A DNA stretch of 64,000 bases from an uncultured Gemmatimonadales bacterium (lineage in GTDB: Bacteria > Gemmatimonadota > Gemmatimonadetes > JACCXV01 > JAHWKZ01). The notes below the pieces were generated by a model. The model ran no database searches and had not been told where the DNA came from. It saw only the letters and a program-made list of their open reading frames with translations. The stretch is from contig CAMYLR010000019.1 in the NCBI GenBank assembly GCA_947259315.1, forward strand, positions 1,252 through 65,251, in the 5' to 3' direction. Both the position numbers and the translations under genes were made by a program. Position 1 is the stretch's first letter. The number at the start of each line of letters is the position of its first letter. Shown one piece after another: positions 1,650 to 45,946 of this stretch.

Positions 1650-4600
1650 GTGGACACGATCTCCGAATTCTTGCACGGTAAACAGCTGCTCGTCACAGGC
1701 GCCACCGGGTTCCTGGGTCAACCGTTGGTAGAGAAGATCCTCTGGGCAGCACCCGATGTCGAACGCATCAACGTGTTGATTCGCCCCAAGCGGAAGTTCG
1801 GCGGTCGGATTCAAACGCCCGCTGAGCGGCTGCGCCGTGAGCTGTTTCAGTCCAGCGTCTTTGATCGGCTGCGCTATCGGCACGGCGAACAACTCGAACG
1901 CTTCTTGGCTCAGAAACTCCACGCCGTAGCTGGCGACATATCGGAGGATGGCCTGGGAATCGATTCCACCGTCCGGGCTCAGCTCGAACGCGAACTCGAC
2001 GTGGTAATCAACAGCGCAGCGGTGGTCTCGTTCGACGCGCCGTTGGACGACGCCCTAGATCTGAACACGCTTGGAGCGGGACGGGTGACCGACTTCACCG
2101 CTTCTTGCCAGCGGGCTGTACTGATCCACGTTTCGACAGCCTACGTCTGCGGGGCCACAGACGAACCCGTCCCCGAGACGTTTCATCACGCCGCCGATTC
2201 CGACGAACCGTTCCCGATGCGTCAGTTTACGGATCCAGAACGCGATATAGCGCGGATCCGGGAGATCATCACTGCCGTACGCGAACAAGGCCAGGGTGCC
2301 GACGTGCGCCGTGAGCTTGTCCAAGCGCTCGTCCAACGCCGACGCGGCCGTGGTGCCGGGCGAGCTGAGCCGCGACGCGAGATGATACAGAACCTCCGCA
2401 GTCGATGGATTCAGAACCGGCTGACGGAAGAAGGCATGAAGTGGGCTCGGGAACGAGGCTGGAACGACACCTACACGTACACAAAGGCGCTCGGTGAACA
2501 GGTTGTTCTGAGACAACGCGGTGACTTGCCAGTCGCAGTCGTGCGACCGGCGATCATCGAGAGCAGCCTGGCTGAGCCCAGCCCGGGCTGGCTAGACGGA
2601 TTGCGAATGGCTGACCCGTTGATCGCGGCCATCGGAAAGGGACGGTTACGATCCCTACCGTTGAACCCCAAAGTGACGCTCGACCTCGTTCCCGCCGACA
2701 TGGTCGTCAATACGATCTTGGCGGCAATGCCGAAGTTGGCCCAGGAGCGTGGGATAGCGATTTATCAAGTGGCTACCGGGTCGCGAAACCCGGTCACGAT
2801 GGGTCGCCTTCACGATCTCATCGTGCGGTACTTCACCGCGAATCCGATGCTGGACAAGAACGACCAGCCGATCCGGGTCAAGCCGCTGACGTTCCCCGAA
2901 CCGGAACAGTTTCGGCTGATGTATCGGGCCAGGGCGGAGCCACTCAAACGAGTCGAGCGTATGCTCCGACGTTTGGTCGCCTGGGGCGTGCTCAACAAGC
3001 AAAGTCAAAAATACCGACGCCGCCTCGCTGCCCGCCTCGCAGCGATGGAGACCCTCTACTACTACGGCGAACTGTACGAGCCGTACCTGAACCTCGATTG
3101 CCAGTTCAAGATCGACAACACGATGCAGCTGCTCGAGGAGCTGACCGAGGAAGAGCGGAGTCGTTACAACTTCGATGTCACAAGGATCAACTGGCCCCAC
3201 TACATGCACGTCCACATCGCCGGGGTCAAGAAGCACATCCTGAAAGTAGAACGCGCGGGAACGCTTGAGCTCGATGACGAGGCTGCCGCCCAACGAGCGT
3301 CCATTTCGACCATCAACGACTTGTTGAGACAATCGGCCGAGAAGTTTCCCGATCGAACCGCACTGCAGATGAAGAGGGACGGCCAGTGGGTCCAGATCAC
3401 CTACGCCGACCTGAAGGAGCGATCCGAAGAAATCGGCGAGCGGTTCCGGAGGCTCGGGTTTCACAAAGGTGATCGTGTGGTCCTCTACTCGGAGAACCAA
3501 CCCGAATGGGGCCTCGCCTACATGGGGGCGGCATCGATCGGACTGGTTGTTGTCCCACTCGATGCCCAGACATGGCACCGGGAGGTGTGGTCCACGGCCA
3601 AGTTTGTAGGCGCGCAGGCTATGCTCGCCTCAGAGTCGTGCTTCGATCGCTTGGCACCTGAAGGGTTGGAACAGAACGAACGGTCCGATGCGCCGATGCT
3701 GGTGCTCAACGTTGACCACAGCTGTCGACCTTTTGACCTCGACAGCTACCCCAGAAGCACCCGTCCAGCAGAGAAAGAACCGCCGGCCTTGAACAAGGCC
3801 GATCGGGTGCGACCCGACGATCCGGCGTCGATCATCTTCACCACCGGAACTGCGGTGGATCCGCGGGGCGCAATACACACACATCGCAATTTCTTGAACA
3901 ACCTGTTCGGTGTCAGCCGAACGCTATCGGTTAGCGAGCACGACCGATTGCTTTCGGTGCTCCCCCTCTATCATGCCTTGGAGTTCACATGCGGATTCCT
4001 CACACCTATCTACCACGGTGGGACGGTCAGCTATGCACAATCTCTGAAACCCAAGGTGATTTTGGAGACGATGCGCGAGACTGGCACCACGATCATGCTT
4101 GGGGTGCCAACACTGTACGCGCTCATTCGCGACGATCTCGAGCGGCGCGTTCTGCGGGCCGGGAAATCGCCGCTACGCTCAAACTTGATGGAGACGACCA
4201 AGCAGATAAGCCGTTCATGGGAGCGAACGTTTAACCGCAACATAGGCCGTCAGATCTTCAGTCGAGTTCATCAGGAGCTGGGCGGCAGCGTACGGTTCTT
4301 CGTAAGTGGTGGGTCCGCGCTCGGTGCGGAGCTATACGACGACTATCGCGCGATGGGCCTAACGATCTACGAGGGTTACGGACTCACCGAGACGGCTCCA
4401 GTTCTGACCGTCAACCCGTTGTATCAGAGTCGTCCCGCTTCATGCGGCAAACCACTGCCGGGTATCGAACTGAGACTCTACCACACGGACAACGAAGGTG
4501 TTGGTGAGATCATCGTTCAGAGTCCCAGCTTGATGAACAGTTACTACAACAACGTCGAGGCTAGCGAACGCGTCATGGTGGACGGATGGTTCCACACAGG

Positions 4601-6053
4601 CGATCTAGGCTGGGTCGACGCTGACGGGTACCTCTACATCACGGGTCGTAAAAAAGACGTCATCGTGACGGGGGCGGGCAAGAATGTCTACCCGATGGAT
4701 CTGGAAGCTATCTACCGAGCGCTACCTTCGGTGCGGGAGATTTGTGTCGTAGGAATCCCGAGCGGCCTGACGGAGGAGGTGCACGCAATCGTCGAACCGG
4801 ACCCGGCTCTGCTGCACGATGCATCGGCGGACGAAGTCCAGAAGCTGATTCAGCGCGAGGTCCAGGCCCAGGGACGCGAGCTGCCGAGCTACCATCGGCT
4901 GCAACAGGTTCACCTCTGGGCAGGGTTGTTGCCGCGAACAAGCGACGGGCAGATCGATCGGACGCGATTGCGAGGCTGGATCGAGCGCACTGCGCGCGCG
5001 CGCGCTGATCTCGAAACACCCACGGTCGCCAGCGGACCCGGCCAACTCGAACTCAAGGCCCAACTGTACGACGAGCTCGCGCGCCTCTCGGGTCGACCAC
5101 TCGAAGAGATCACGCCAGCCACTCATCTGTACGAAGATCTGGGGCTCGATTCACTCCGGGCGATCGAGCTCTTCTTGCTCGTCGAGCATGCGATCGGCGA
5201 AACGCTAGACGACGAAGCAGCGGCGGAAGTCGAAACGGTGGAGCAGCTGTTGGCGATCGTGGCCCCGGAGAAAAAGGTGCGGGAGAAGCTGGGCGCAATG
5301 CAGCCTGAACCCGCGCTTCGCTCAACCCTGCCATATCCAGAGCGCAAGGCCGTAGACCGGTGGTTGCTCGGATCCGCCGGCCGCGGACTCGAGGCCCTGT
5401 ACACATCGTACTTCGACCTCGAGCTAGTCCACACTGATCGGTTGCCGCGAAAGCGGCCGTATCTGCTCGCCGCAAACCACTCGAGCCATCTCGATGCGCC
5501 GGCCGTGCTGTCGGCCGTTCGACTCGCGCATGGCCCAGAGGCGGCGCGGTCTATCCACGTGCTCGGTGCTCGTGACTATTTCTTTGATACGACGCTGAAG
5601 GGTTGGTTCTTCAGCACGTTTCTGAACGTCGTGCCGATCGAGCGCGAAGAGACATCGTTGGCTGGGCTCAGAACCGTCAAGTCGATTCTCACGAGTGGTG
5701 AGTCGGCGCTGATCTTTCCCGAGGGGACCCGTTCGCGGAGCGGCGAAATCCAAGCGTTCAAGCCGGGTTTGGGACTGATCGCGTGGGAGCTTAGGACGCC
5801 CATAGTGCCGGTCTACATATCCGGAACGCACGACGCGTTGCCCGTCGGCCGAAACCTACCCCGCAGGCAACGGGTCAGGATCGAGTTTGGCTATCCAATA
5901 ACGATGGACGCGTACGATAAAGTCAGGGATCGGCTTCCGAATAACCGGCTCTACCGCGAGATTGCCGCTGACGTGCGGAATACGATCGTGAGCATGTCGG
6001 ATGGCCAACCAGATCCCGACAGCGGTAATGGCGCTGGTGGTCGAGCCGAATGA
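1650..6053 (+). CDS. ElbD-like multifunctional lipid enzyme: fatty acyl-CoA reductase (NAD_binding_4 + FAR C-terminal domain) - AMP-dependent fatty acyl ligase - ACP (PP-binding) - 1-acyl-glycerol-3-phosphate-type acyltransferase (PlsC)
   Basis: The 1467-aa ORF is uninterrupted. The N-terminus has LVTGATGFLGQPLVEKIL (Rossmann of male-sterility/FAR reductases). The middle has FTTGTAVDPRGAIHTHRNF, YEGYGLTETAPV and GWFHTGDLGWVDADGYLYITGRKKDVIV (AMP-binding core motifs). Next comes LYEDLGLDSLRAIELFLLVE (phosphopantetheine-attachment Ser). The C-terminus has LLAANHSSHLD (HX4D) and FPEGTRSRSGE (PlsC motifs). Confidence 0.85.
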   Translation: MDTISEFLHGKQLLVTGATGFLGQPLVEKILWAAPDVERINVLIRPKRKFGGRIQTPAERLRRELFQSSVFDRLRYRHGEQLERFLAQKLHAVAGDISEDGLGIDSTVRAQLERELDVVINSAAVVSFDAPLDDALDLNTLGAGRVTDFTASCQRAVLIHVSTAYVCGATDEPVPETFHHAADSDEPFPMRQFTDPERDIARIREIITAVREQGQGADVRRELVQALVQRRRGRGAGRAEPRREMIQNLRSRWIQNRLTEEGMKWARERGWNDTYTYTKALGEQVVLRQRGDLPVAVVRPAIIESSLAEPSPGWLDGLRMADPLIAAIGKGRLRSLPLNPKVTLDLVPADMVVNTILAAMPKLAQERGIAIYQVATGSRNPVTMGRLHDLIVRYFTANPMLDKNDQPIRVKPLTFPEPEQFRLMYRARAEPLKRVERMLRRLVAWGVLNKQSQKYRRRLAARLAAMETLYYYGELYEPYLNLDCQFKIDNTMQLLEELTEEERSRYNFDVTRINWPHYMHVHIAGVKKHILKVERAGTLELDDEAAAQRASISTINDLLRQSAEKFPDRTALQMKRDGQWVQITYADLKERSEEIGERFRRLGFHKGDRVVLYSENQPEWGLAYMGAASIGLVVVPLDAQTWHREVWSTAKFVGAQAMLASESCFDRLAPEGLEQNERSDAPMLVLNVDHSCRPFDLDSYPRSTRPAEKEPPALNKADRVRPDDPASIIFTTGTAVDPRGAIHTHRNFLNNLFGVSRTLSVSEHDRLLSVLPLYHALEFTCGFLTPIYHGGTVSYAQSLKPKVILETMRETGTTIMLGVPTLYALIRDDLERRVLRAGKSPLRSNLMETTKQISRSWERTFNRNIGRQIFSRVHQELGGSVRFFVSGGSALGAELYDDYRAMGLTIYEGYGLTETAPVLTVNPLYQSRPASCGKPLPGIELRLYHTDNEGVGEIIVQSPSLMNSYYNNVEASERVMVDGWFHTGDLGWVDADGYLYITGRKKDVIVTGAGKNVYPMDLEAIYRALPSVREICVVGIPSGLTEEVHAIVEPDPALLHDASADEVQKLIQREVQAQGRELPSYHRLQQVHLWAGLLPRTSDGQIDRTRLRGWIERTARARADLETPTVASGPGQLELKAQLYDELARLSGRPLEEITPATHLYEDLGLDSLRAIELFLLVEHAIGETLDDEAAAEVETVEQLLAIVAPEKKVREKLGAMQPEPALRSTLPYPERKAVDRWLLGSAGRGLEALYTSYFDLELVHTDRLPRKRPYLLAANHSSHLDAPAVLSAVRLAHGPEAARSIHVLGARDYFFDTTLKGWFFSTFLNVVPIEREETSLAGLRTVKSILTSGESALIFPEGTRSRSGEIQAFKPGLGLIAWELRTPIVPVYISGTHDALPVGRNLPRRQRVRIEFGYPITMDAYDKVRDRLPNNRLYREIAADVRNTIVSMSDGQPDPDSGNGAGGRAE

Positions 6054-11441: not shown

Positions 11442-11876
11442 ATGGCTGGCGGAACCTTGGTTTCTACGCTGAGCCGGCTCTTCTGCGGTCTAGCGTTCGT
11501 TTTTCACGGCGCCCCAAAGGTCTTTAACCTCGAGGCCACGTCGGGCTTCTTCGAGAGCGTCGGATTTCCATCCTGGTTGGCGATCCCGGTCGCCGGGCTC
11601 GAGTTCTTCGGCGGGATATTCCTGCTAGTGGGGTTTCTCACCCGTTGGTTATCCGTGCTCTTCATCCTGGAGATGGTTGTAGCGATCGTGGCCGTCCACC
11701 TGCCAAATGGGTGGAACGTTTTTGAGGGCGGCTACGAGTACAGTCTCGCATTGATCGTCATGCTGATCGGTGTCATCGTGCTCGGTCCCGGCTCATTCTC
11801 GATCGACGGACAGCTCCGGAAGAGTCGCGAGGGGGCTACCTCACCTGAACCCGACCCACCCAGCCTGGAGACGTGA
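11442..11876 (+). CDS. DoxX family membrane protein
   Basis: About 140 aa with four predicted TM helices and a DoxX-like pattern (FVFHGAPKVFN...FFGGIFLLVGFLTRW). Confidence 0.7.
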   Translation: MAGGTLVSTLSRLFCGLAFVFHGAPKVFNLEATSGFFESVGFPSWLAIPVAGLEFFGGIFLLVGFLTRWLSVLFILEMVVAIVAVHLPNGWNVFEGGYEYSLALIVMLIGVIVLGPGSFSIDGQLRKSREGATSPEPDPPSLET

Positions 11877-13426
11877 GCCCGGCGGCAACCTTCCTCTCAG
11901 CGGCGCCCGAGGTCCGGCTGGCAAAAGCGTTCGAAGCGCCGTTCGCCAACTTTCTCGCCACGGCGCGAACGTGCTACAGCTCCAAGGGCATCATCCCCGA
12001 CGTCGAAATCAACGATCGGTGGATCGGGCTGGCCAGGAGTCTGTACCAGGCCGGGCACCACACCACCCTGCAGCATGCTCAGTTTCAATTCTCCCTCGCC
12101 AATGTCAGCCGCCATTTTATCTGGAGCTTTCTCCACAGTCATCCGTTCTACAACAGCGAGCAGGTGAGTCAGCGCTACGTCGAGGTGAAGCCGGGAAACG
12201 TCGTGATCCCGCCGTTGCAGAGCGAAGCCCTGGCGAGATATCAATCGACGGTGGGGCGGCAAATGAAGGAGTACCGCGAGCTGATCGAGCTGTTGACGCC
12301 GGTGACCGAGGATGCCTATTACGAGCGCTTCCCAGGCCGAAGATCGAACGCTGAGAAGTACGCCAAAGAGATCCAGAAACGAGCGCAGGAGATCGCTCGA
12401 TACGTGTTGCCGATCGGCACGTTCGCATACCTGTATCACACCGTCAGTGGTATCACACTGTTGCGCTACGCAAGGCTGTGCGAGCAAGTCGACACGACGG
12501 CGGAGACAAGGCTAGTCGTCAAGGCGATGGTGGACGCGTTGTTGGAATACGATCCCGCCTACGAGACGATCCTGGAGGAATCGCTGCCGTTGGATTCCAC
12601 TCCTGAACACAGCTTCCTGAGCGCGCGCAACGGCGATGGCGAGCGACGGCGCACGTTCCGTAGGGAATTCGATCGTCAGCTGGATGGCAGATTGTCGCAG
12701 CTGGTCGACTACGGGGCTCGCAACGAACAGGTGCTGGCTGACGCTGTGCGTGAGGTGCTGGGCGAACCCAAAGCCGCGCTCTCCGATGACGAGGCGATCG
12801 GCCTGGCGCTCGATTCACGGCTCAACCCGTTACTCGGCGAAGCACTCAATCTGACCACACACGCCAAGCTCACACGGGCCCTTTATCACCCCCATTACAC
12901 GTTTCGGAAACGGCTCTCGCACGCCGGTGACTCACAAGACCAACGGCATCGAATGACACCTGGCTCGCGGCCAGCGCTTACCGCGCACATCACCCGTGAA
13001 CCGGACTACCTCGTTCCACGGTTGGTACTTGAGGACGCGCGTGTCGAAACAGCGTACCGACAGAGCATGGAGCGCACTTGGGAAGACATCGACGCCGTGC
13101 GGGCGGCTGGCGCCCCGGCAGAGTTCGCCGAATACCTTCTGCCGAACGCGGTCGCCATCCGGTTCACCGAGTCGGCGGACCTGCTGAACTTGTTCCACAA
13201 GCACACGATGCGTCTGTGTTACAATGCGCAGGAGGAGATTTGGCAGGCATCGCTCGAAGAGGCGCAACAAGTCACCGCAGTCAACCCGCGAATCGGGCGC
13301 CATCTACTACCACCCTGCACGGTCCGCTTTCACGCCGGTCAACGACCGATCTGCCCCGAAGGGACACGCTTCTGCGGCGAGCGGGTCTGGAAGCTCGATG
13401 TGGACGCGTTTACCCGCCGTATCTGA
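11873..13426 (+). CDS. Divergent ThyX-fold (flavin-dependent thymidylate synthase-like) protein with a large internal insertion
   Basis: N-terminal half: AGHHTTLQHAQFQFSLANVSRHFIWSFLHSHPFYNSEQVSQRY aligns with ThyX HGHETPFEH..FTF......ARQWFRHRIASYNELSGRY. C-terminal: LLNLFHKHTMRLCYNAQEEIWQ aligns with ThyX FLNLRADSHAQWEIQ. The protein is 517 aa versus ~220-250 for ThyX. The start overlaps the DoxX stop. Confidence 0.5.
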   Translation: MSPAATFLSAAPEVRLAKAFEAPFANFLATARTCYSSKGIIPDVEINDRWIGLARSLYQAGHHTTLQHAQFQFSLANVSRHFIWSFLHSHPFYNSEQVSQRYVEVKPGNVVIPPLQSEALARYQSTVGRQMKEYRELIELLTPVTEDAYYERFPGRRSNAEKYAKEIQKRAQEIARYVLPIGTFAYLYHTVSGITLLRYARLCEQVDTTAETRLVVKAMVDALLEYDPAYETILEESLPLDSTPEHSFLSARNGDGERRRTFRREFDRQLDGRLSQLVDYGARNEQVLADAVREVLGEPKAALSDDEAIGLALDSRLNPLLGEALNLTTHAKLTRALYHPHYTFRKRLSHAGDSQDQRHRMTPGSRPALTAHITREPDYLVPRLVLEDARVETAYRQSMERTWEDIDAVRAAGAPAEFAEYLLPNAVAIRFTESADLLNLFHKHTMRLCYNAQEEIWQASLEEAQQVTAVNPRIGRHLLPPCTVRFHAGQRPICPEGTRFCGERVWKLDVDAFTRRI

Positions 13427-21001: not shown

Positions 21002-22513
21002 TCATGGTTGAAGAGATCGCGAAAATGTGTCATGTGTCGACTGAGCGCGCTGCAATTGCCCGCTATAATCGACGTAGACGGTCTTCAAATCGCAAAAAAA
21101 ATCATACACTGGCCAGCCACCCTCGCGGTGGCCATTGCCGGTGTCCTTTACCCCACCGAACGGATAATGAGCCTCAGCCCCGATCGTGGGGCTATTGACG
21201 TATGTGATCCCGGCGTCGACACGTTCGATCACCTGGAACGCCGCGTTGACGTCCCGGGTGTAGATCGATGACGAGAGCCCATACCGGACGTCGTTCATCA
21301 CCTCGACCCCGTGCTCCAGGTTCTCGACCCTGATAACGGATAGCACAGGCCCAAAGATTTCTTCCTGCGCGATCCGCATATCGGTTTCCACGCCGGTGAA
21401 GATCGTCGGCCGGTAGAACCAGCCCCTGGCGAGCTCCTTGTCCGCCGGGATCTCCCCACCTGTCCGCAAGGTCGCACCGTCCTCGGCGCCAATGCGCACG
21501 TACTTGGCGACTTTGTCCCGAGCTTCTTCGTTGATCAATGGCCCTACGTCTGTGCCCTGCTTGCGACCATCTCCGAGCACCAGCGCCTCGGCCCGCCGCA
21601 CTAACTCGTCGACGAACTCATCGTGAACACCCGCCTGGAGCAACAAACGACTGGTCGCGGTGCAGCGTTGGCCGGTCGTTCCGAACGCGCCCCAAAGGAC
21701 CCCTTCCAGGGCCAGCTCGACATCCGCGTCGTCAAGCACTAGCTGGGCGTTCTTGCCGCCCATCTCGAGCGAGACCGGCTTGGCTTGCTCACCACAAGCG
21801 GCCGCGATTTTGCACCCCACCGCCGTCGAGCCGGTGAACGAGATGCCGGTCACCCACCGATGGGTCGTCAACGGGGCGCCGGCTTCTGGCCCGAAGCCAG
21901 TAACCAGTTGCATGACGTTCTCGGGTAACCCCGCCTCGAGCAGGATCTCGACGAACTTGACCGCCGACCATGGAGTGTCCTCAGCGGGCTTCCAGACGAC
22001 CGAGTCTCCGCACACCAAGGCCGGAAAGATCTTCCAGCTCGGTACGGCGATCGGGAAGTTCCATGGCGTGATAATCCCGAAGACGCCAGCCGGGCGGCGA
22101 ATCGAAAAACCCATCTTCTGTGGTAGCTCCGAAGGAGCGGTGTGGCCGAAGAGCCGCCGCCCCTCGCTGGCCGCATAGTAAGCTGTATCGATCGCTTCCT
22201 GGACATCACCTCGGGTCTCAACCAGCGGTTTGCCCATCTCGCGTGTCATTCCGTCCGCGAGCTCCTCCTTGCGCTCGGTCATCAGGTCCCCGGCCTGCCG
22301 GAGCACATCGCCCCGCACCGGAGCCGGAACGCGCGACCATTCGTCGAACCCCGCCTTAGCAGCGACCACCGCCTCGTCGATATCCGCCGGTCCGCTCGCG
22401 GCAAACGTCCCGATCACGTCGCTGGTGTCTGCCGGATTCGTGTTTGGAAAATCCGTCCGGGTCGTGGCTTCGACCCATTTCCCGGCGATCAGATTGCGAT
22501 ACGTCTCACTCAT
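21002..22513 (-). CDS. NAD(P)-dependent aldehyde dehydrogenase
   Basis: ALDH family: LEMGGKNAQLV (ELGGK-type glutamate box), FTGSTAVG, catalytic Cys context GQRCTA. About 503 aa. Confidence 0.85.
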   Translation of the reverse strand: MSETYRNLIAGKWVEATTRTDFPNTNPADTSDVIGTFAASGPADIDEAVVAAKAGFDEWSRVPAPVRGDVLRQAGDLMTERKEELADGMTREMGKPLVETRGDVQEAIDTAYYAASEGRRLFGHTAPSELPQKMGFSIRRPAGVFGIITPWNFPIAVPSWKIFPALVCGDSVVWKPAEDTPWSAVKFVEILLEAGLPENVMQLVTGFGPEAGAPLTTHRWVTGISFTGSTAVGCKIAAACGEQAKPVSLEMGGKNAQLVLDDADVELALEGVLWGAFGTTGQRCTATSRLLLQAGVHDEFVDELVRRAEALVLGDGRKQGTDVGPLINEEARDKVAKYVRIGAEDGATLRTGGEIPADKELARGWFYRPTIFTGVETDMRIAQEEIFGPVLSVIRVENLEHGVEVMNDVRYGLSSSIYTRDVNAAFQVIERVDAGITYVNSPTIGAEAHYPFGGVKDTGNGHREGGWPVYDFFCDLKTVYVDYSGQLQRAQSTHDTFSRSLQP

Positions 22514-23119: not shown

Positions 23120-23815
23120 ATGACGAGGTCGCTGGACGATGTGACGCTCGAAGTCACCGGTTGTCGCCGTTGTCCCCGGCTGGTGGCGTGGCGCGAGCGG
23201 GTGGCGCGACAGAAGCGATCAGCATTTGCCGACGAGGAATACTGGGGCCGGCCGGTGCCGGGCTGGGGAGATCCGAATGCGCGTTGTCTGTTGGTCGGCT
23301 TGGCCCCGGCCGCTCACGGCGCGAACCGGACCGGGCGCATGTTCACCGGCGACGAATCCGGTCGCTGGTTATATCGCGCGCTTCACCGCGCCGGTTTCGC
23401 CAGCCAACCGCAGTGCGAACATAAGGATGATGGCCTCACCCTTACCGACTGCTTCATCACAGCCGTCGCCCGTTGTGCCCCACCCGCCAACCGGCTGAAA
23501 CCGACCGAGCGCGACAATTGTCGCCCTTATCTCGAGGCTGAAATGAACGCACTCAACAATGTCCGCGTGGTGGTTACGCTAGGGCAGTACGCGTACGACC
23601 ACGTCTTGCGGATCTACCGCGATCGGGGCGTCTCGGTGCCTGTCCCCAAACCACGGTTCGCACACGGTGCCGAGGTCGAGTTGGGGGTTGACGAGCCAAC
23701 GGTGATCGCCTCGTACCACCCCTCCCAACAGAACACTTTCACCGGCAAGCTCACCGAGCCGATGCTCGACGCGATATTTGAGCGCGTGCAAGGGATAATC
23801 GACGCTGGTCGCTAG
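23120..23815 (+). CDS. udg: Uracil-DNA glycosylase, family 4 (Fe-S type)
   Basis: CRRCPRL Cys cluster near the N-terminus, GEGPG-like GLAPAAHGANRTGRMFTGD, and C-terminal HPS. Start at the internal ATG 23120 (MTRSLDDV...). Confidence 0.8.
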   Translation: MTRSLDDVTLEVTGCRRCPRLVAWRERVARQKRSAFADEEYWGRPVPGWGDPNARCLLVGLAPAAHGANRTGRMFTGDESGRWLYRALHRAGFASQPQCEHKDDGLTLTDCFITAVARCAPPANRLKPTERDNCRPYLEAEMNALNNVRVVVTLGQYAYDHVLRIYRDRGVSVPVPKPRFAHGAEVELGVDEPTVIASYHPSQQNTFTGKLTEPMLDAIFERVQGIIDAGR

Positions 23816-25206
23816 TTTTCGCGGGACAAACCGTACTTCTCGATCTTCTTGTACAAGTGGGAGCGTTGCATGTCGAGCTGACGTGCGGTTTCCGAGACGT
23901 TCCAGTCATTTTCGCTCAACTTCCGACTGAGAAACGCTCGCTCGGCAGCGTCGCGGTAATCGCTGAACGTGGAGTGTTTGGCGATCAGGGACTCGGCCTC
24001 ACCTGCCCGGGGCTTGCTGACCGCAGGCTCAGTCAAGGTCTCCACGTCAACGACGTCAACCGTGTCCCCTGGCGCCAGAATCACCAGCCGCTCGACGGTG
24101 TTCTTCAGTTCTCGAATGTTGCCGGGCCACGATCGCTTGGTGAGTGTCTCTACCGCCTGCTCAGAAAAAGGCTTCTCCACCATGCCGTTGTCGGCGGAGT
24201 ACGTGCGCGCAAAGTGTTGCACGAGCCCCGGGATGTCCTCCACTCTCTCGGAGAGCGGCGGGACGTGGATCGGGACGACGTTTAGTCGATAATACAGATC
24301 CTCTCGAAAGTTGCCCTCTGCAATCTGGGACACGATGTCCTTGTTCGTGGCCGCTAGCACGCGTACATCGACCTCGATCTGCTCGCCGCCACCCACGCGT
24401 TGTATGACGCCGTCCTGCAGCGCTCGCAAGACCTTCGCCTGCGCAGCGAGGCTCATGTCCCCGACTTCATCCAAGAAGAGCGTGCCACCGTCTGCCAGCT
24501 CGAACTTTCCCTTTCGGCGCGCGTGCGCGCCGGTAAAGGCTCCCTTCTCGTGTCCAAACAGCTCCGACTCAATGAGCTCCTGCGGGATCGCCGCACAATT
24601 GACCTCGATGAATGGCTTGTCGCGCCGTTCTGAGCGAGCGTGAATCTCCCGCGCCACCAACTCCTTCCCAGTCCCATTCTCACCGGTGATCAATACGTAC
24701 GCTTTGGTAGGCGCGACCTTCGTCACTTGTTGCAGAACTTCCTCGAGTGCCGGGCTATTCCCCACGATGACATCACGTGTCGCCCGGCCTTCGCCACGAA
24801 GGGCTGCATTCTCCCGCTCCAACTCGCGTTCCGCGAGTGCATTTGCGATCCGGCGCAGAACGATCTCGCGATCAGGAGGCTTCTCGAGGAAGTCGAACGC
24901 CCCGCGTTTGAGGGCTTCTACCGCCGTCTCCACGTTGCCGTGCCCACTGATCATGACCACTGTCGCATCCGGGTCCTCGGAGCGCAGCTGCTCTAAGACC
25001 TCGAGCCCATCCATGGGTGCCATCTTGATGTCCAGCAGTACCAAATCCGCTACCCGGTCGGCGTAAGCGCTTAGTGCCTCAGGTCCGTTTTCGGCGGTGC
25101 GCACTGCGTACCCTTCGTACTCGAGCATCTGTTGCAGCGCCTGACGGATGCCGGGCTCGTCGTCGACCACGAGTAATTCAGCGATCGGTTTCGATTGTCG
25201 GTTCAT
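23812..25206 (-). CDS. Sigma-54-dependent response regulator (NtrC family: REC + AAA+ + HTH)
   Basis: The receiver has a phospho-Asp context (DLVLLDIKMAPMDG). The sigma-54 interaction domain has GENGTGKELVAREIH (Walker A), GAFTGA and the [15 protein letters not shown] box. The C-terminal Fis-type HTH follows. Confidence 0.85.
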   Translation of the reverse strand: MNRQSKPIAELLVVDDEPGIRQALQQMLEYEGYAVRTAENGPEALSAYADRVADLVLLDIKMAPMDGLEVLEQLRSEDPDATVVMISGHGNVETAVEALKRGAFDFLEKPPDREIVLRRIANALAERELERENAALRGEGRATRDVIVGNSPALEEVLQQVTKVAPTKAYVLITGENGTGKELVAREIHARSERRDKPFIEVNCAAIPQELIESELFGHEKGAFTGAHARRKGKFELADGGTLFLDEVGDMSLAAQAKVLRALQDGVIQRVGGGEQIEVDVRVLAATNKDIVSQIAEGNFREDLYYRLNVVPIHVPPLSERVEDIPGLVQHFARTYSADNGMVEKPFSEQAVETLTKRSWPGNIRELKNTVERLVILAPGDTVDVVDVETLTEPAVSKPRAGEAESLIAKHSTFSDYRDAAERAFLSRKLSENDWNVSETARQLDMQRSHLYKKIEKYGLSREN

Positions 25207-32165: not shown

Positions 32166-33263
32166 GTGGAACGGATCCGGCCTACCAAACACGCCGACTT
32201 TATCGTGCGGCACGCCGCACCGTTCAATGGCGGACCACCGTTAGCCGCGCTGGTCGACTCGCCTATCACTCCAGAAGAGCTTTTCTACGTTCGCAACCAC
32301 GCCCCTGTCCCAGAAATCGATGCTACCGCGTTTCGACTGTCGGTCGGCGGCCTAGTCGAGCGATCGCTCGAGTTGTCGCTCGATGATCTGAAGCGCGAGT
32401 TCGAGTTCCGCAGGGTCGAGGCAACGCTGCAGTGCGCGGGCAACCGGCGTGATGAGCTGATCGCGGTGCGCGAGATCCCGGGCGAGGTGCCGTGGGGCGC
32501 GGAGGCGATCGGCAATGCCCGCTGGGGCGGCGTCGCACTGCGCGACGTATTGGCTGCCGCCGGCGTGAGCGATGACGCGAAGCACGCAGCGTTCGTGGGG
32601 CGCGACCGTGCCCAGAAGGGCAGCCAGACGTTTCCGTTTGGGGGGTCGATACCGATCGAAAAGGCCAATGACAGCGACGTTCTGCTAGCCTATGAGATGA
32701 ACGGTAAGCCATTGCCAGCGACCCACGGATACCCGTTGCGGGTCGTAGTCCCCGGTTATATCGGGGCGCGCAGCGTCAAATGGGTCTCTGAGATCCGGGT
32801 CCAAGCGACACCGTCGGACAACTACTACCAGCGAAAGAGCTACAAGCTCTTCCCGCCCACCGTGTCAGCGGAAACGGTAGACTGGGATCACGGACTGATG
32901 CTCGGCGAAGTCGGGCCGACGGCGGTACTGTGCCGAATCGATGGTGGCGTCCCAGCCAAGGCCGGCCCCGTCGGTCTCGCTGGATACGCGATGGGCGCCG
33001 GCGGAACGGAAGTAGACGGTGTCGAAGTCTCGATTGACGGAGGCGCGATATGGCACCCGGCAAAATTGGGCTCCGGGGAGCACGGCACCTGGTACTTGTG
33101 GAGAATCGTCGTCGAGCTGACGGCCGGCGAGCACGAGATCATCGTCCGGGTCCATGGGAGCGGCTCTCATCAACCCGATCATGCAGCCACCGGCTGGAAC
33201 TTCAAGGGTTATATGAACACCGCTTGGCACCGCACACTATTGCAGGTCGATAGTCGCACCTAG
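32166..33263 (+). CDS. Sulfite-oxidase-family molybdopterin oxidoreductase
   Basis: Moco-binding domain with Cys ligand context (ATLQCAGNRR), followed by an Ig-like dimerisation domain. Confidence 0.8.
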   Translation: MERIRPTKHADFIVRHAAPFNGGPPLAALVDSPITPEELFYVRNHAPVPEIDATAFRLSVGGLVERSLELSLDDLKREFEFRRVEATLQCAGNRRDELIAVREIPGEVPWGAEAIGNARWGGVALRDVLAAAGVSDDAKHAAFVGRDRAQKGSQTFPFGGSIPIEKANDSDVLLAYEMNGKPLPATHGYPLRVVVPGYIGARSVKWVSEIRVQATPSDNYYQRKSYKLFPPTVSAETVDWDHGLMLGEVGPTAVLCRIDGGVPAKAGPVGLAGYAMGAGGTEVDGVEVSIDGGAIWHPAKLGSGEHGTWYLWRIVVELTAGEHEIIVRVHGSGSHQPDHAATGWNFKGYMNTAWHRTLLQVDSRT

Positions 33264-33483
33264 CGGGAGAGCGAACTGACAACCCGGACATCCGAAACGA
33301 AACGCCCAGCGTGGATGCCGCCCCTTCTCATCGTCCTGGTTCGGGATGCTCAGCTATCTGTATCTCGCCGAGCTGTCGTCGCTGACTCTCGTCTTCGTGG
33401 GGTTTCCTGATCGCGACGCGGAGTGTTTCGACGCCCAGCCGCTCTTAGCAAGCCCGCTGCAACTGCGAGCACGCGACCTGTAA

Positions 33484-34455
33484 CTACCCCAGCTTGTGAA
33501 TCGTCGCGCGAGGAGCGGGAATCACGGCCGCCCGGACATCGCCGTTACCCGAACCCGACGGCTCCGCCGCCGCACCGTATGGTCGCTCGGGTCCACCGCC
33601 GTTGCCGCGAACGATCTTGACGCCGGCGCTGGCTCCGATCCTGGTCGCACCGGCCTCGATCATCTTGAGTGCGGTTGGCTGGTCGCCCACTCCACCGGCG
33701 GCCTTGACGCCCAACTCCGCACCGACCGCGCGGCGCATGAGTCGGATGTCATCCTCGGTCGCACCACCCGGCCCAAAACCGGTCGACGTCTTTACAAAGT
33801 GAGCCCCAGCGGCCTGCGCCAAGACGCACGCCTTCACCTTTTCCTCATCGGTCAGGTATGCAGCCTCGATGATCACTTTTACCTTGGCTCTCCGCCTCGC
33901 CGCCTCGACCACACCGCGGATGTCTCGCTCGACCTCGCTGTACGCGCCCGACCGAAGCGCCCCCACGTTGATCACCATGTCGAGCTCTGCGGCACCATCT
34001 TCGAGCGCGCGGATCGCCTCGTACGCTTTGGTCTCGGATCGATTGGCGCCCAACGGAAAACCGATCACCGTACAAACCCGAACCGGCGTGGTCGCCAACC
34101 TCTCGACCGCCAATCTCACCCACCACGGGTTGATGCACACGGTGGCGAAACAGAACTCTACCGCCTCATCGCAGAGCGCCTCGATTTCTTGCTGACTGGC
34201 TGTTGGCGCGAGCAACGTATGGTCGATCATGCGAGCCAAAACGTTGTCACACGCATCGACGCCTGGGCCGGCGGTGAACCGGTCCGCACCACACGCCGCC
34301 AAGCGGCGCACCTTGTCAGCGCAGTGGGCTACGCAGTGCGAACCATCACAGCGGTCGCAGGCACCCAGCGCGTAAGACGTCCCGCTCGCGAGCTGCGTCC
34401 TGAGCTCGGCCGCGATCAGGTCGGCCAACAGATCGATGTTCGGACCAGTTGTCAC
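33484..34455 (-). CDS. deoC: Deoxyribose-phosphate aldolase with an N-terminal ~80-aa extension (amphipathic helix + Cys-rich linker)
   Basis: Core MIDHTLLAPTASQQEIEALCDEA...CTVIGFPLGAN...VKVIIEAAYLTDEEKVKAC...FVKTSTGFGPGGAT...GVKAAGGV is collinear with DeoC, including the Schiff-base Lys region. The N-terminal NIDLLADLIAAELRTQLAS helix precedes GACDRCDGSHCVAHCADK. Confidence 0.85.
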   Translation of the reverse strand: MTTGPNIDLLADLIAAELRTQLASGTSYALGACDRCDGSHCVAHCADKVRRLAACGADRFTAGPGVDACDNVLARMIDHTLLAPTASQQEIEALCDEAVEFCFATVCINPWWVRLAVERLATTPVRVCTVIGFPLGANRSETKAYEAIRALEDGAAELDMVINVGALRSGAYSEVERDIRGVVEAARRRAKVKVIIEAAYLTDEEKVKACVLAQAAGAHFVKTSTGFGPGGATEDDIRLMRRAVGAELGVKAAGGVGDQPTALKMIEAGATRIGASAGVKIVRGNGGGPERPYGAAAEPSGSGNGDVRAAVIPAPRATIHKLG

Positions 34456-34742
34456 TCTTGCAAACCGGTTGAGTCCAAGAAGTCGATTCGATCCACCACA
34501 CCAATGACTAGGTTCTGGAGCGGAACCCGCTCACGACCCGTAACAAGCCGAGCCCCAGTCCCCTCGCGAGAGACAAGCACCTTGTCACCGATACCGGCGT
34601 CGACCCGGTCAACGGCGATCATCTCTTCGCCTTCGTCGCGACCATCGATCGCCAACGGTTGAACGACCAGCAGCTTGTACTCCGCCAGCTCGGGGTCCTT
34701 GTCGCTGGACGTGACGGTTCCGGTCACCCGCGCGAGGATCAT
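34452..34742 (-). CDS. Bacterial microcompartment vertex (pentamer) protein, EutN/CcmL/PduN family (BMC-P)
   Basis: [29 protein letters not shown]...AVDRVDAGIGDKVLVSREGTGARLV...LQNLVIGVVDRI matches the PF03319 pattern (ARViGtVvsT.K...G.KLL.vq...AvD.vGAG..E.VLv..Gs.AR......D.aivgiVD). Its start overlaps the upstream BMC-P stop (ATGA). Confidence 0.8.
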   Translation of the reverse strand: MILARVTGTVTSSDKDPELAEYKLLVVQPLAIDGRDEGEEMIAVDRVDAGIGDKVLVSREGTGARLVTGRERVPLQNLVIGVVDRIDFLDSTGLQE

Positions 34743-35005
34743 GTCCGGTCGACCGAGTCGATCTTGCCGACGATCGCCGCATCCACCGCGCAGAAGGGAT
34801 CCCTTAACGGCAACGAAGCTTCGCGGCTGGTGACATAGTAGACCCACTCATCATCACCGTAGGATCCCGTATCCACGGCCACCAGCGGCTTGGCGGAGGG
34901 TTGCCCTTCGGCGTCAGTGGGCTCGATCCATAGCAGCCGATAGCCGACAAGCGGCTCGATCTTGCGGGTGCTCACCACCCGCCCAATCACACGTGCAAAG
35001 TGCAT
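34739..35005 (-). CDS. Bacterial microcompartment vertex (pentamer) protein, EutN/CcmL/PduN family (BMC-P), second paralog
   Basis: [29 protein letters not shown]...[23 protein letters not shown]...[12 protein letters not shown]. Same family pattern; 88 aa. Confidence 0.8.
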
Positions 35006-35173
35006 GGCCCGGAGAGTATCCCTCCCCGGGCAGCGCCGTCAACTGCCAAAATGACGCATTTTCGGCGCGGCACATGGCTTGCACTAGAGGAGGCAGATAT
35101 CTGCAGCCCGGCGGGGCTCCCCGTCAAAAACGCAGTCTGTGCAGGCCATCTTCGATCGAATGAGAGGAAAGCG

Positions 35174-37087
<1,914 letters not shown>

Positions 37088-44335: not shown

Positions 44336-45946
44336 CTATGAGAGTCCGTATTTCTTGAGTTTTCGGTACAGAGTCCGTTCGCCGATGCCGAGAATCTCGG
44401 CCGCCCGGCGGCGGTTACCGTCAACGACCGCCAGCGTGCGTTCGATCGCCAAGCGCTCGATTTCATCCAGACTGACCCCCACCGTCAGCAGCTCGCCATC
44501 AGCCACTGAGGGCACCTCGCGGGCGTCACTGGGTTCGCCGATCGGAACTGTTCGGACTTCGTTGTCGATATCGCCGCCTTCCGTTTCGACCTCTACTGCT
44601 CGGACCCATGGCACCCCCCGGTCGCTTCCCTCGAGCAACTCGCGGATCTCCCGATAGTCGTTCCGCAACGCGTCCAGCTCACCCTTCAGATCGCGATACA
44701 AGTACCCCAAGAGCGCCTCGATCCGAGCCCCGGAGACACCCCCGTCGACAACATCCTCACCTAGCGGCATCGGCAGCAGCCGCTCGGGATTCGCCCGAGC
44801 GTATATCTCTTCTGGAATGTCACGCGCGCGAATTTTCGACCCAGGAGTCAACACCAACATGCTTTCGACCAGGTTTCTCAGCTCACGGACATTGCCAGGC
44901 CAGTCATAGTTCTTGAGGACGGACATCGCTTCGTCGGTGATGCCTACAAACTGGCGATCGTTCTGGGTGCAGAACTCTTGTACGAAATGGTGGATGAGAA
45001 GCGGAATGTCGTCACGCCGCTCACGGAGCGGGGGCATGCGCACGTTCAGGACATTTAACCGATAGTACAGATCGCGTCGGAATTCGCCCGCTTCTACCGC
45101 CGACTCGAGATCGCGGTTGGTTGAGGCGAGAACCCGCACGTCGACCCGGATAGGTTTCGAGCCGCCGACCCGCATGAACTCGCGTTCCTCGAGCACGCGA
45201 AGCAGCTTGACCTGAGTCGAGAGCGGCATCTCTCCAACCTCGTCCAATAACAGCGTGCCCCGATCGGCGATCTCGAAATGACCCTTCCGAAGGCTAGTGG
45301 CGCCGGTAAAAGACCCTTTCTCGTGACCGAACAGCTCCGATTCGAGAAGGCTTTCGGTCAAAGCGGCGCAATTGACGGCGATGAATGGCTTGCTGGCGCG
45401 TGTCGACAGATCGTGAATCGCTCTCGCGATCAGCTCCTTCCCGGTGCCACTCTCGCCTTCGATCAGGACGGTTGAATGAACCGGGGCATATTGGGAAACT
45501 CGCTCAAGAACGAGTTTGATCGCTTCCGATCGGCCGATGATGTGCGTCCTTCCAACCAACTCCTCGCGCGCGATCAGACGGCGTGCGACGAGCGTCAGCT
45601 CGTTCGCATCAAACGGCTTCTTGAGAACCTCGTCGATCCCCTGCTTACGGCGCCGCTCTATGCGCTCGAACTCAGTATCATTGACCAGCGCAAGCACGCC
45701 AACCGGCCGGGCGGCATCGTCGATTTGTCGCAGGAACTCTCGCGTCGCACGCTCGGAGATTCCGCCGGTCAGTACGATGAGTGTCACCCGACTGTCGCTC
45801 AAAACTCGCTCCCGGATCTCCTTGATCGAATCCACGACCTCCACGTCGAGCCCAGCCATGCCGAGTACGTGTTCGGCGCGAATCGCGTACTCAGGGTCGT
45901 AGCGGCTGACCAAGACAGCGGCCGGAATCGTCGCGCCCGCACTCAT
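44336..45946 (-). CDS. Sigma-54-dependent transcriptional activator with atypical (non-phosphorylatable) receiver-like N-domain
   Basis: AAA+ core [15 protein letters not shown] and [13 protein letters not shown] (GAFTGA variant). C-terminal HTH ([22 protein letters not shown]). The N-terminal REC-like fold ends in LKKPF, but the phospho-Asp position reads VTLIVLTGG (no Asp). Confidence 0.8.

Follow-up and report, generated by a model that had tools for sequence, protein, structure and literature searches.

The question raised by this locus is what two genes of the bacterial microcompartment (BMC) vertex family and a deoxyribose-phosphate aldolase (DeoC, or DERA) are doing side by side in a stretch of DNA that carries no other recognisable part of a shell. 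The window, meaning the whole 64-kb stretch analysed here, belongs to a Gemmatimonadota bacterium. An earlier note, made from the sequence alone, had read the operon as a detached BMC locus, made up of a pair of vertex genes and of a DERA gene whose product bears an N-terminal extension of the encapsulation-peptide type. This core reading is upheld by the family matches, by the conservation of the extension, and by the signs that the extension is translated.

An overlapping operon and its vertex pair

The three genes form an operon on the minus strand, running from 35005 to 33484 in the order BMC-P1, BMC-P2, DeoC, and all three open reading frames are present at the positions reported before. 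BMC-P1 (34739-35005, minus strand) encodes the 88 aa previously given, BMC-P2 (34452-34742, minus strand) encodes 96 aa instead of 97 (97 being its number of codons with the stop), and DeoC (33484-34455, minus strand) encodes 323 aa from a GTG start, with its core at residues ~73-287. Both junctions are 4-nt overlaps that can be read directly in the sequence, namely ATGA at P1/P2, where the ATG of P2 overlaps the TGA of P1 as had been pointed out, and GTGA at P2/DeoC. In the relatives L001, L002, and L004, both junctions were likewise called with 4-nt overlaps, as was the second one in L003; these overlaps suggest that P1, P2, and DeoC are translationally coupled.

The sole consensus match to a sigma-70-type promoter in 33200-35300 (shuffled sequences gave a mean of 0.3) lies on the minus strand at 35015..35042, where TTGACG and GATACT are separated by a 16-nt spacer. 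This promoter, a candidate by consensus match only, has its 3' end ~10 nt before the ATG of P1, within the 168-bp region between P1 and the divergent dnaK. A sigma-54 promoter upstream of P1 was also considered by eye and was rejected, its spacing being off consensus. In every one of the 24 clade loci for which upstream sequence is available, the P-P-DeoC unit adjoins dnaK. Its neighbourhood consists of housekeeping genes, and it is common to ~20 GTDB species and ~55 protein clusters; the best 20 genome-contig matches to the DeoC extension are almost all labelled Gemmatimonadota. The balance of synonymous and non-synonymous changes indicates purifying selection on all three genes, DERA codons 1-76 included.

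The assignment of both small open reading frames to the BMC-P family holds. P1 and P2 score 74.5 and 88.2 bits, respectively, against PF03319 (cutoff 25 bits), both span positions 1-83 of the 83 in the profile, and both match solved CcmL, EutN, and HO BMC-P chains in a PDB search. From this family membership, the two proteins are predicted to form shell-vertex pentamers. Compared with close relatives, P1 has 22-29 synonymous and 1-4 non-synonymous codon changes, and P2 has 19-30 and 5-11.

P1 carries the motif SREA...PVDAAIVG of triplet type B and P2 the motif REGxGAR of triplet type C, the two types that stand in tandem within the BMC-P triplets of loci in other phyla. Against the paralogues of those phyla, the mean score of P1 is 158 for type B, 99 for A, and 92 for C, and that of P2 is 174 for type C, 147 for A, and 126 for B, whereas P1 and P2 score 87 against each other. 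Since each scores higher to its counterpart elsewhere than to its neighbour, the two are old paralogues and no recent duplication. Their motifs and co-occurrence, rather than placement on the published tree, suggest that they correspond to the grey/orange pair of the BMC catalogue. Wherever grey BMC-P occurs, so does orange, the two belonging to one triplet, and the pair is standard in SPU, HO, ACI, and FRAG types (PMC8217296). Read as old paralogues and as a pair that is standard in several BMC types, the tandem is not the uncommon duplication for which it had been taken. A third BMC-P paralogue, which would belong to the green, blue, or purple clade, was not found in the 64-kb window by a six-frame HMM scan.

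The aldolase core and its appendages

DeoC lies downstream on the same strand and has the canonical core ascribed to it. Residues 73-282 match TIGR00126 at equivalog level (267.7 bits; cutoff 117.3 bits), and D159, K193, and K222, which are taken from sequence motifs as the probable counterparts of the E. coli residues D102, K167, and K201 named in PMC11585597, are invariant in 68 homologues. By these sequence marks, the protein is a class I DERA (EC 4.1.2.4) with an intact catalytic Asp/Lys/Lys set and predicted activity. Solved DERAs (220-230 aa) align to it, with high similarity, at residues ~72-287 only; therefore, ~72 N-terminal residues, in keeping with the extension described earlier, and ~36 C-terminal residues, absent from that description, are extra.

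The earlier note had itself allowed that the N-terminal extension might not be translated, with the true start close to the MIDHTLL motif. The 76 codons before that point would then be an untranslated spacer. Two gene calls of 247 aa, P0054 and P0055, do start at MIDHT, and no obvious Shine-Dalgarno sequence precedes the DeoC GTG. Against such an annotation artefact, codons 1-76 have changed mostly synonymously (24 synonymous and 2 non-synonymous changes relative to L005, 22 and 5 relative to L001, both close relatives), much like the core, and the extension peptide recurs in conserved form in Gemmatimonadota, Chloroflexota, Planctomycetota, Acidobacteriota, and Ignavibacteriota, with C41, G56, A57, and R59 invariant. 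The same mis-annotation of the DERA start was met in PMC11585597 and corrected there by hand. The synonymous excess and the cross-phylum conservation refute the artefact at sequence level and leave it scarcely credible.

AlphaFold2 places a helix, similar to an encapsulation peptide, at residues 7-23 of the extension (IDLLADLIAAELRTQLA; 34387..34437, minus strand), with a pLDDT of ~85 for residues 11-20; within the clade, there is no variation at A11, L13, I14, A15, or E17. The hydrophobic moment of this helix (0.45) is not significantly above that of shuffles for this sequence (p=0.12), and the helix family leans amphipathic, with a mean z of 1.45 and p<0.05 in 9 of 29 sequences. The Cys-rich stretch said to follow the helix was found at residues 31-45 (GACDRCDGSHCVAHC) and contains a four-cysteine cluster, C33-x2-C36-x4-C41-x3-C45 (34321..34359, minus strand), a putative metal site in which C33, C36, and C41 are invariant or nearly so across phyla. 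Of 174 unique BMC-type DERA extensions, 165 (95%) have at least four Cys in the 32 aa preceding the GAxR motif, the Cys frequency being 14.3% in these 32 aa versus 2.6% in the DERA core. The cluster appears to be undescribed in the BMC-catalogue and SPU-DERA papers. Residues 48-76 (34228..34314, minus strand), with which the extension ends, form a conserved segment, KVRRLxxxGAxRxxAGPGVxACDNVLARM, which weakly resembles the C-terminal strand/helix of DERA itself (GATRIGAS; PDB profile E 0.07-1). Pfam returned no significant known domain in the extension, the PDB profile matches, to ferredoxin-type proteins and to the DERA C-terminus, all fell below threshold, and AlphaFold2 is unsure at residues 25-68, with a pLDDT of 50-66 in the Cys region.

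Solved DERAs lack the extension, and BMC-linked ones conserve it. In the work in which it was experimentally characterised in 2024, all SPU DERAs are stated to have an N-terminal extension of ~70 aa, which is reported to be absent from non-BMC DERAs (PMC11585597). That of the SPU6 DERA was described there as a putative encapsulation peptide, and the enzyme without it is soluble, active, and dimeric; as regards a loading role in SPU6, this solubility effect of the deletion is the sole effect reported. Encapsulation peptides are amphipathic terminal helices of ~15-25 aa, linked to the enzyme through a less conserved stretch; with its modestly amphipathic helix, the present extension is a putative peptide of this type.

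In an alternative view, the enzyme would stay in the cytosol and serve ordinary nucleoside catabolism, its N-terminal domain would be regulatory or metal-binding and no targeting signal, and the adjacency of its gene to BMC-P genes would be without functional meaning. The weak amphipathicity of the helix in this sequence is in line with such a view, as are the conserved 4-Cys cluster, which would be superfluous in a simple encapsulation peptide, and the lack of other deo genes or BMC enzymes near the operon. It is made very improbable by the company that extension-bearing DERAs keep in several phyla. In Gemmatimonadota, Planctomycetota, and Chloroflexota, BMC-P genes are immediate neighbours of the DERA gene, and in phyla other than Gemmatimonadota a DERA with the same extension is found in loci with BMC-H, BMC-T, an acylating aldehyde dehydrogenase (AldDh), and the full P triplet, as in L045, where the gene order is DeoC, H, P, AldDh, T, P, P. 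Close relatives retain the 4-nt overlap of DeoC with P2; this and the confinement of the extension outlined above, which leaves out both non-BMC and solved DERAs, likewise argue against a cytosolic enzyme.

At the other end of the protein, the ~36 extra residues comprise a variable Gly/Ala/Pro/Ser-rich linker followed by a clade-specific motif at V311-L322 (VIPAPRATIHKL; 33490..33525, minus strand). Every one of 53 clade sequences has the P, H, and L of this motif, VIPAPRATIHRL, and in the homologue set compared, the motif closes all complete Gemmatimonadota open reading frames and no other. AlphaFold2 gives the tail a pLDDT of <50. Like the 4-Cys cluster, the motif appears to be undescribed in the BMC-catalogue and SPU-DERA papers.

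Partner genes and catalogued systems

The statement that the 64 kb contain no hexamer or trimer shell genes proved correct, since tblastn and a six-frame HMM scan, the latter detecting a BMC-T control, both came back empty for BMC-H and BMC-T. Genes for an RpiB-like protein or an acylating AldDh are likewise lacking in the 64-kb window. Its sole aldehyde dehydrogenase gene, at 21002-22513, was considered as a BMC AldDh and rejected, the product being a canonical NAD(P) enzyme (PF00171, 557.7 bits) closest to alpha-ketoglutaric semialdehyde dehydrogenase models; the BMC-type AldDh of L045 reaches only 116.3 bits against PF00171. Nor did any of 24 related loci have a BMC-H, BMC-T, third BMC-P, RpiB-like, or acylating AldDh gene closer than 10 kb to the operon. 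Among the best 120 matches of a protein search with an SPU3-like BMC-H query from L068, none carried a Gemmatimonadota label; the search is poorly aimed at one phylum because it covers these best matches only and BMC-H is highly conserved. With no further shell genes in the window or within 10 kb in the 24 loci, the shell is inferred from the catalogue and not seen.

These results would also suit a module without a shell, the clade having lost or never had BMC-H, in which the grey/orange pair and DERA would form, for example, a small pentamer-enzyme complex or scaffold. The P-P-DeoC unit is kept self-contained amid housekeeping genes, and the authors of the catalogue see multiple BMC-P paralogues as hinting at an additional role (PMC8217296). 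Such a module is nonetheless improbable, given that the catalogued FRAG8 genomes, mostly of Gemmatimonadetes, have BMC-H together with the full triplet, and that reports of grey/orange BMC-P are confined to triplets, of which they supply two members (PMC8217296). Moreover, the FRAG types are defined by fragmentation into up to six sites, so the absence of BMC-H from 64 kb is to be expected.

Among catalogued systems, FRAG8 is a fragmented type, mostly from Gemmatimonadetes, with pfam01791 in almost all loci, a P triplet (green/grey/orange), standard BMC-H, and pfam02502 usually absent (PMC8217296 Supplementary Data 2). The operon shares with it the phylum, the scattering of shell and enzyme genes, an SPU-type pfam01791 aldolase, and triplet-type BMC-P, so that the marks of FRAG8 (Gemmatimonadetes, dispersed genes, pfam01791) are all found here. 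It differs in that one fragment is seen, and in occurring in ~20 GTDB species, whereas FRAG8 comprised 7 loci only in the 2021 catalogue (Sutter et al. 2021, PMC8217296). SPU7 also has grey/orange BMC-P and pfam01791 in satellite sites, away from a main locus with BMC-H and the green-clade BMC-P, as well as AldDh, PTAC, and pfam02502 (PMC8217296); unlike the present operon, SPU7 comes from candidate phyla (Cloacimonetes, Riflebacteria, Wallbacteria). FRAG5 of the Planctomycetes resembles the operon in having the B-C BMC-P tandem directly upstream of DERA (P, P, P, DeoC in L056 and L076), and its AldDh is related to that of FRAG8 (PMC8217296 Supplementary Data 2). In L056 and L076, however, there is a third BMC-P, of type A, ~1.5 kb upstream, as well as an RpiB-like gene in the vicinity.

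The SPU6 DERA of Chloroflexi (PMC11585597) resembles the present enzyme, being of class I with conserved catalytic residues and a ~70-aa N-terminal extension that consists of a helix and a less ordered part and includes, as here, a 4-Cys cluster and a GAxR segment; it is ~55-58% identical to the Gemmatimonadota DERA. The spacing of the cysteines is CxxCxxCxxC in SPU6 and CxxCx4Cx3C here, and the Gemmatimonadota enzyme adds its C-terminal tail. Furthermore, the SPU6 DERA is encoded in the main locus and is complexed with the adjacent RpiB-like protein (PMC11585597), whereas an RpiB-like gene lies near DeoC in none of the 24 related loci.

A likeness to Haliangium had also been pointed out, and it stands in part. 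In Haliangium ochraceum and its relatives, the HO type I satellite is detached and holds two triplet BMC-P genes and an aldolase, with BMC-H and the third BMC-P in a main locus apart from it. The aldolase of this satellite, from another phylum, is not DeoC but a class II enzyme (pfam00596) with at most a C-terminal extension, and the combination of two BMC-P with pfam00596 that marks the type is not found here, where the aldolase is a class I PF01791/TIGR00126 enzyme with an N-terminal extension. The assignment to the sugar-phosphate-utilising (SPU) class calls for a similar correction. Of the components of an SPU locus (PMC11585597), DERA is present, while the BMC-type AldDh, RpiB-like protein, BMC-H, and BMC-T are absent from the window; the operon alone is therefore a satellite and no SPU main locus. 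A detached BMC locus with DERA is supported, a canonical SPU locus is not, and a FRAG8 or SPU7-like satellite fits best.

A probable satellite of a fragmented compartment

The operon is thus probably a satellite of a fragmented, sugar-phosphate-type BMC in Gemmatimonadota, of the architecture known from FRAG8 and from SPU7 satellites. In such a compartment, DERA would be recruited to the lumen through its N-terminal extension, made up of the helix at residues 7-23, the 4-Cys cluster, and the GAxR segment, and acetaldehyde would be consumed by a CoA-acylating aldehyde dehydrogenase encoded elsewhere. The P1 and P2 pentamers would close the vertices of the shell jointly with a third, green-clade BMC-P, which, like the BMC-H hexamers, would be encoded at other chromosomal sites.

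Earlier work has already covered the architecture of the locus, the enzyme, and its N-terminal extension, and the picture of BMC organelles is unchanged. The operon offers a well-conserved example of the sparsely sampled catalogue type FRAG8, in a lineage where the grey/orange pair and the signature aldolase make up one overlapping three-gene unit. The 4-Cys cluster and the C-terminal motif add two testable features to this signature enzyme. It is conceivable, if rather unlikely, that DERA is tethered to the grey/orange pentamers through appendages that go beyond a generic encapsulation peptide, a view that would fit the conserved 4-Cys module (zinc or iron-sulfur), the docking-like VIPAPRATIHRL in an enzyme that lacks an adjacent RpiB-like partner, and the adjacency to the BMC-P genes. 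The unit bears on the acknowledged question of why many BMCs have three BMC-P paralogues when 12 pentamers suffice; were the tethering true, the extra vertex paralogues would gain a role in organising cargo.

An operon of two vertex genes and an aldolase gene

P1 (34739-35005, 88 aa), P2 (34452-34742, 96 aa) and DeoC (33484-34455, 323 aa, GTG start), the deoxyribose-phosphate aldolase (DERA), are three consecutive minus-strand ORFs, the stop codon of P1 being overlapped by the ATG of P2 (ATGA) and that of P2 by the GTG of DeoC (GTGA). P1 and P2 match the vertex pentamer family PF03319 (BMC-P) end to end, with 74.5 and 88.2 bits respectively against a cutoff of 25, and both match solved CcmL, EutN and Haliangium BMC-P chains. 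DeoC is assigned to the equivalog TIGR00126 over residues 73-282 (267.7 bits, cutoff 117.3). The two BMC-P genes and the N-terminally extended DeoC described in an earlier note are thus present. Relative to close relatives, P1 has accumulated 22-29 synonymous and 1-4 non-synonymous codon changes and P2 19-30 and 5-11, and both genes are, judging by these counts, under purifying selection. Since solved bacterial DERAs (220-230 aa) align, with high similarity, only over DeoC residues 73-287, DeoC has ~72 additional residues at its N terminus and ~36 at its C terminus. D159, K193 and K222 do not vary among 68 homologues, and from sequence motifs we take them to be the counterparts of D102, K167 and K201 of E. 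coli DERA, the residues named in PMC11585597.

A single consensus match to a sigma-70-like promoter (TTGACG, 16 nt, GATACT; 35042-35015, minus strand) lies just upstream of P1, inside the 168-bp divergent P1/dnaK region (35006-35173), and is a candidate promoter; if used, it would give the P1 ATG a leader of ~10 nt or less. Inspection by eye disclosed no good sigma-54 promoter upstream of P1, and two sigma-54 activator genes are located in the window (23812-25206 and 44336-45946). No terminator-like site was found downstream of DeoC.

The description of P1 and P2 as an uncommon tandem duplication has to be abandoned. Three BMC-P types are distinguishable by motif in the loci retrieved from other phyla, namely A (...GSSARQ...), B (...SREA...PVDAxIVG) and C (...EGxGAR...). 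The mean scores of P1 are 158 to type B, 99 to A and 92 to C, those of P2 are 174 to type C, 147 to A and 126 to B, and P1 and P2 score only 87 against each other. By these scores they are old paralogues rather than a duplication, and the rarity of the arrangement had been overstated. The types fit the published "BMC-P triplet", of which we infer P1 and P2 to be the grey/orange pair, an assignment based on motifs and co-occurrence; an HMM scan of all six frames detected no third triplet member in the window.

The additions to the DERA core

The earlier note had allowed for a DeoC start near the MIDHTLL motif, which would leave the extension untranslated. The gene calls of two homologues (P0054 and P0055) truncate DERA there, and the same mis-annotation problem is reported in PMC11585597. 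Such a start is dismissed because codons 1-76 change almost only synonymously (24 synonymous versus 2 non-synonymous codons against the related locus L005, 22 versus 5 against L001; core, 61 versus 6 and 64 versus 18) and because the extension recurs across phyla, so that an untranslated extension retains a negligible probability. The extension is, on this evidence, real protein. Its architecture recurs in ~55 clusters at 65-94% identity, with more divergent extended DERAs in Chloroflexota, Acidobacteriota (Bryobacterales), Planctomycetota, Ignavibacteriota/Bacteroidota, Sericytochromatia and Kryptonia.

All SPU DERAs were reported to carry a ~70-aa N-terminal extension consisting of a ~25-30-aa helix and two low-confidence strands (PMC11585597). 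AlphaFold2, supplied with a 68-sequence alignment of DeoC, returned a confident TIM barrel, a predicted helix at residues 7-23 (pLDDT ~85 at 11-20), low confidence for residues 25-68 and a disordered C-terminal tail. The extension helix has an amphipathic tendency across the family (mean z 1.45), that of the window DeoC being only modestly amphipathic (maximum moment 0.45, p=0.12 versus shuffles). In its second half (VRRLxxxGAxRxxAGPGV; 34228-34314, minus strand) the extension bears a weak likeness to DERA's own C-terminal GATRIGASAG strand/helix, the profile of this half reaching the GATRIGAS strand of several solved DERAs at sub-threshold E-values of 0.07-1. This half may have arisen by partial internal duplication.

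A four-Cys cluster, C33-x2-C36-x4-C41-x3-C45 (34321-34359, minus strand), is conserved in BMC-type DERA extensions: of 174 unique BMC-type DERA sequences, 165 have at least four Cys within the 32 residues that precede the invariant GAxR motif, and Cys accounts for 14.3% of this stretch versus 2.6% of the DERA core. The spacing is lineage-specific (CxxCx3Cx3C, CxxCx5Cx3C, CCx4Cx4C or CxxCxxCxxC). The cluster looks like a putative Zn or Fe-S site; the extension profile gave only sub-threshold matches to ferredoxin-type 4Fe-4S proteins (E 0.04-3).

E. coli DERA terminates in a catalytically relevant Tyr. In the Gemmatimonadota clade a Tyr (Y293), 11 residues past ...KIV, is conserved in 37/50 sequences and followed by a tail of ~30 extra residues (33490-33576, minus strand) that the DERAs of the other phyla compared lack. 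A variable Gly/Ala/Pro/Ser-rich linker leads into V-I-P-A-P-R-A-T-I-H-R/K-L, of which P, H and L are invariant in 53/53 clade sequences.

Genomic setting and missing shell genes

The window is ordinary chromosome, with dnaK, htrA, tig, clpP, clpX, hslVU, xerC, trmFO, topA, lpxB, gdh, a sigma-70 factor, a signal peptidase and one tRNA-Leu. It also encodes a 1467-aa protein (1650-6053, plus strand) with fatty-acyl reductase (NAD_binding_4/Sterile), AMP-binding, phosphopantetheine-binding and acyltransferase domains, which we take to resemble the myxobacterial ether-lipid enzyme ElbD, and a 517-aa protein (11873-13426, plus strand) with two tandem Thy1 (ThyX, flavin-dependent thymidylate synthase) domains.

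When one genome per GTDB species was scanned for the DeoC extension, nearly all of the 20 best matches came from Gemmatimonadota MAGs (59-96% identity over the query). The order P-P-DeoC was found in all 24 clade loci with upstream sequence, and synteny with dnaK/htrA/tig/clpPX is retained on relatives' contigs of 97 and 151 kb. One contig, L023 (CAYWRD010000165.1, 3177 bp), binned as "uncultured Nitrosopumilaceae archaeon", has a Gemmatimonadota-type P-P-DeoC and the clade-specific C-terminal tail, and is probably a mis-binned bacterial contig.

The absence of BMC-H and BMC-T genes from the 64 kb was borne out, no PF00936 domain being found in the window by an HMM that detected a BMC-T control at 56.8 bits. 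RpiB-like and BMC-type acylating aldehyde dehydrogenase (AldDh) genes are likewise absent from the window; the ALDH at 21002-22513 (minus strand), 11 kb from the operon, was considered as the CoA-acylating enzyme and rejected, being a canonical NAD(P) enzyme whose nearest models are those of 2,5-dioxovalerate/alpha-ketoglutaric semialdehyde dehydrogenase, at scores below their cutoffs. No BMC-H gene lies within 10 kb of the operon in any of the 24 clade loci, nor do these loci have RpiB, BMC-T or BMC-type AldDh. A role of P-P-DERA without any shell would agree with these absences and is given a slim chance. The extended DERA type is linked to shell genes across phyla. In the Chloroflexota locus L045 the order is DeoC, BMC-H, BMC-P type A, AldDh (116.3 bits to PF00171), BMC-T, BMC-P type B and BMC-P type C, and in the Planctomycetota loci L056 and L076 it is P, P, P, then DeoC. 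In 15 loci from other phyla, DERA or BMC-H is adjoined by a 214-aa protein without Pfam match (L045 10831-11475), which the Gemmatimonadota clade lacks.

Relation to described microcompartment types

Satellite and consolidated loci were defined by Sutter et al. 2021 (PMC8217296), in whose FRAG types shell genes are spread over up to six places. FRAG8, mostly of Gemmatimonadetes, combines a green/grey/orange triplet with standard BMC-H, and has pfam01791 in almost all loci and pfam02502 in only two; in SPU7, grey/orange BMC-P and pfam01791 are found at satellite locations. The window locus, without AldDh, RPI and BMC-H, falls outside the SPU main locus definition. The Haliangium-type detached BMC-P pair invoked earlier does exist as the HO type I satellite, with two BMC-P and an aldolase, but the HO aldolase is pfam00596 and the window locus is not an HO satellite. 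Of the detached locus as originally proposed, the observation and core interpretation stand, while its rarity was overstated and its type imprecise. These comparisons with PMC8217296 and PMC11585597 make the locus one more example of an architecture already described.

SPU6 DERA complexes with the adjacent RpiB-like protein, and with its extension deleted is soluble and active (PMC11585597). A purely cytosolic DERA is rated slightly less probable still than a shell-less role. The order and overlaps of the three genes, the families of their products, the conservation of the catalytic residues and the selection acting on the extension are established directly. The reading we consider quite probable as a whole, drawing on family knowledge, is that P1 and P2 would assemble as vertex pentamers, that DERA would be loaded via its N-terminal extension and acetaldehyde oxidised to acetyl-CoA by an encapsulated AldDh, with BMC-H, green-clade BMC-P and AldDh encoded elsewhere. 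RpiB-like genes occur close to DERA in 23 loci from other phyla versus 0/24 clade loci, and because the clade is without this adjacent partner, the C-terminal tail might, speculatively, provide a packaging contact in its place. Zinc, iron-sulfur and extension cysteines go unmentioned in PMC11585597 and in the portion consulted of the catalogue's SPU descriptions (PMC8217296); measured against this literature, the extension Cys cluster and the clade C-terminal tail would take this family slightly beyond its published descriptions.
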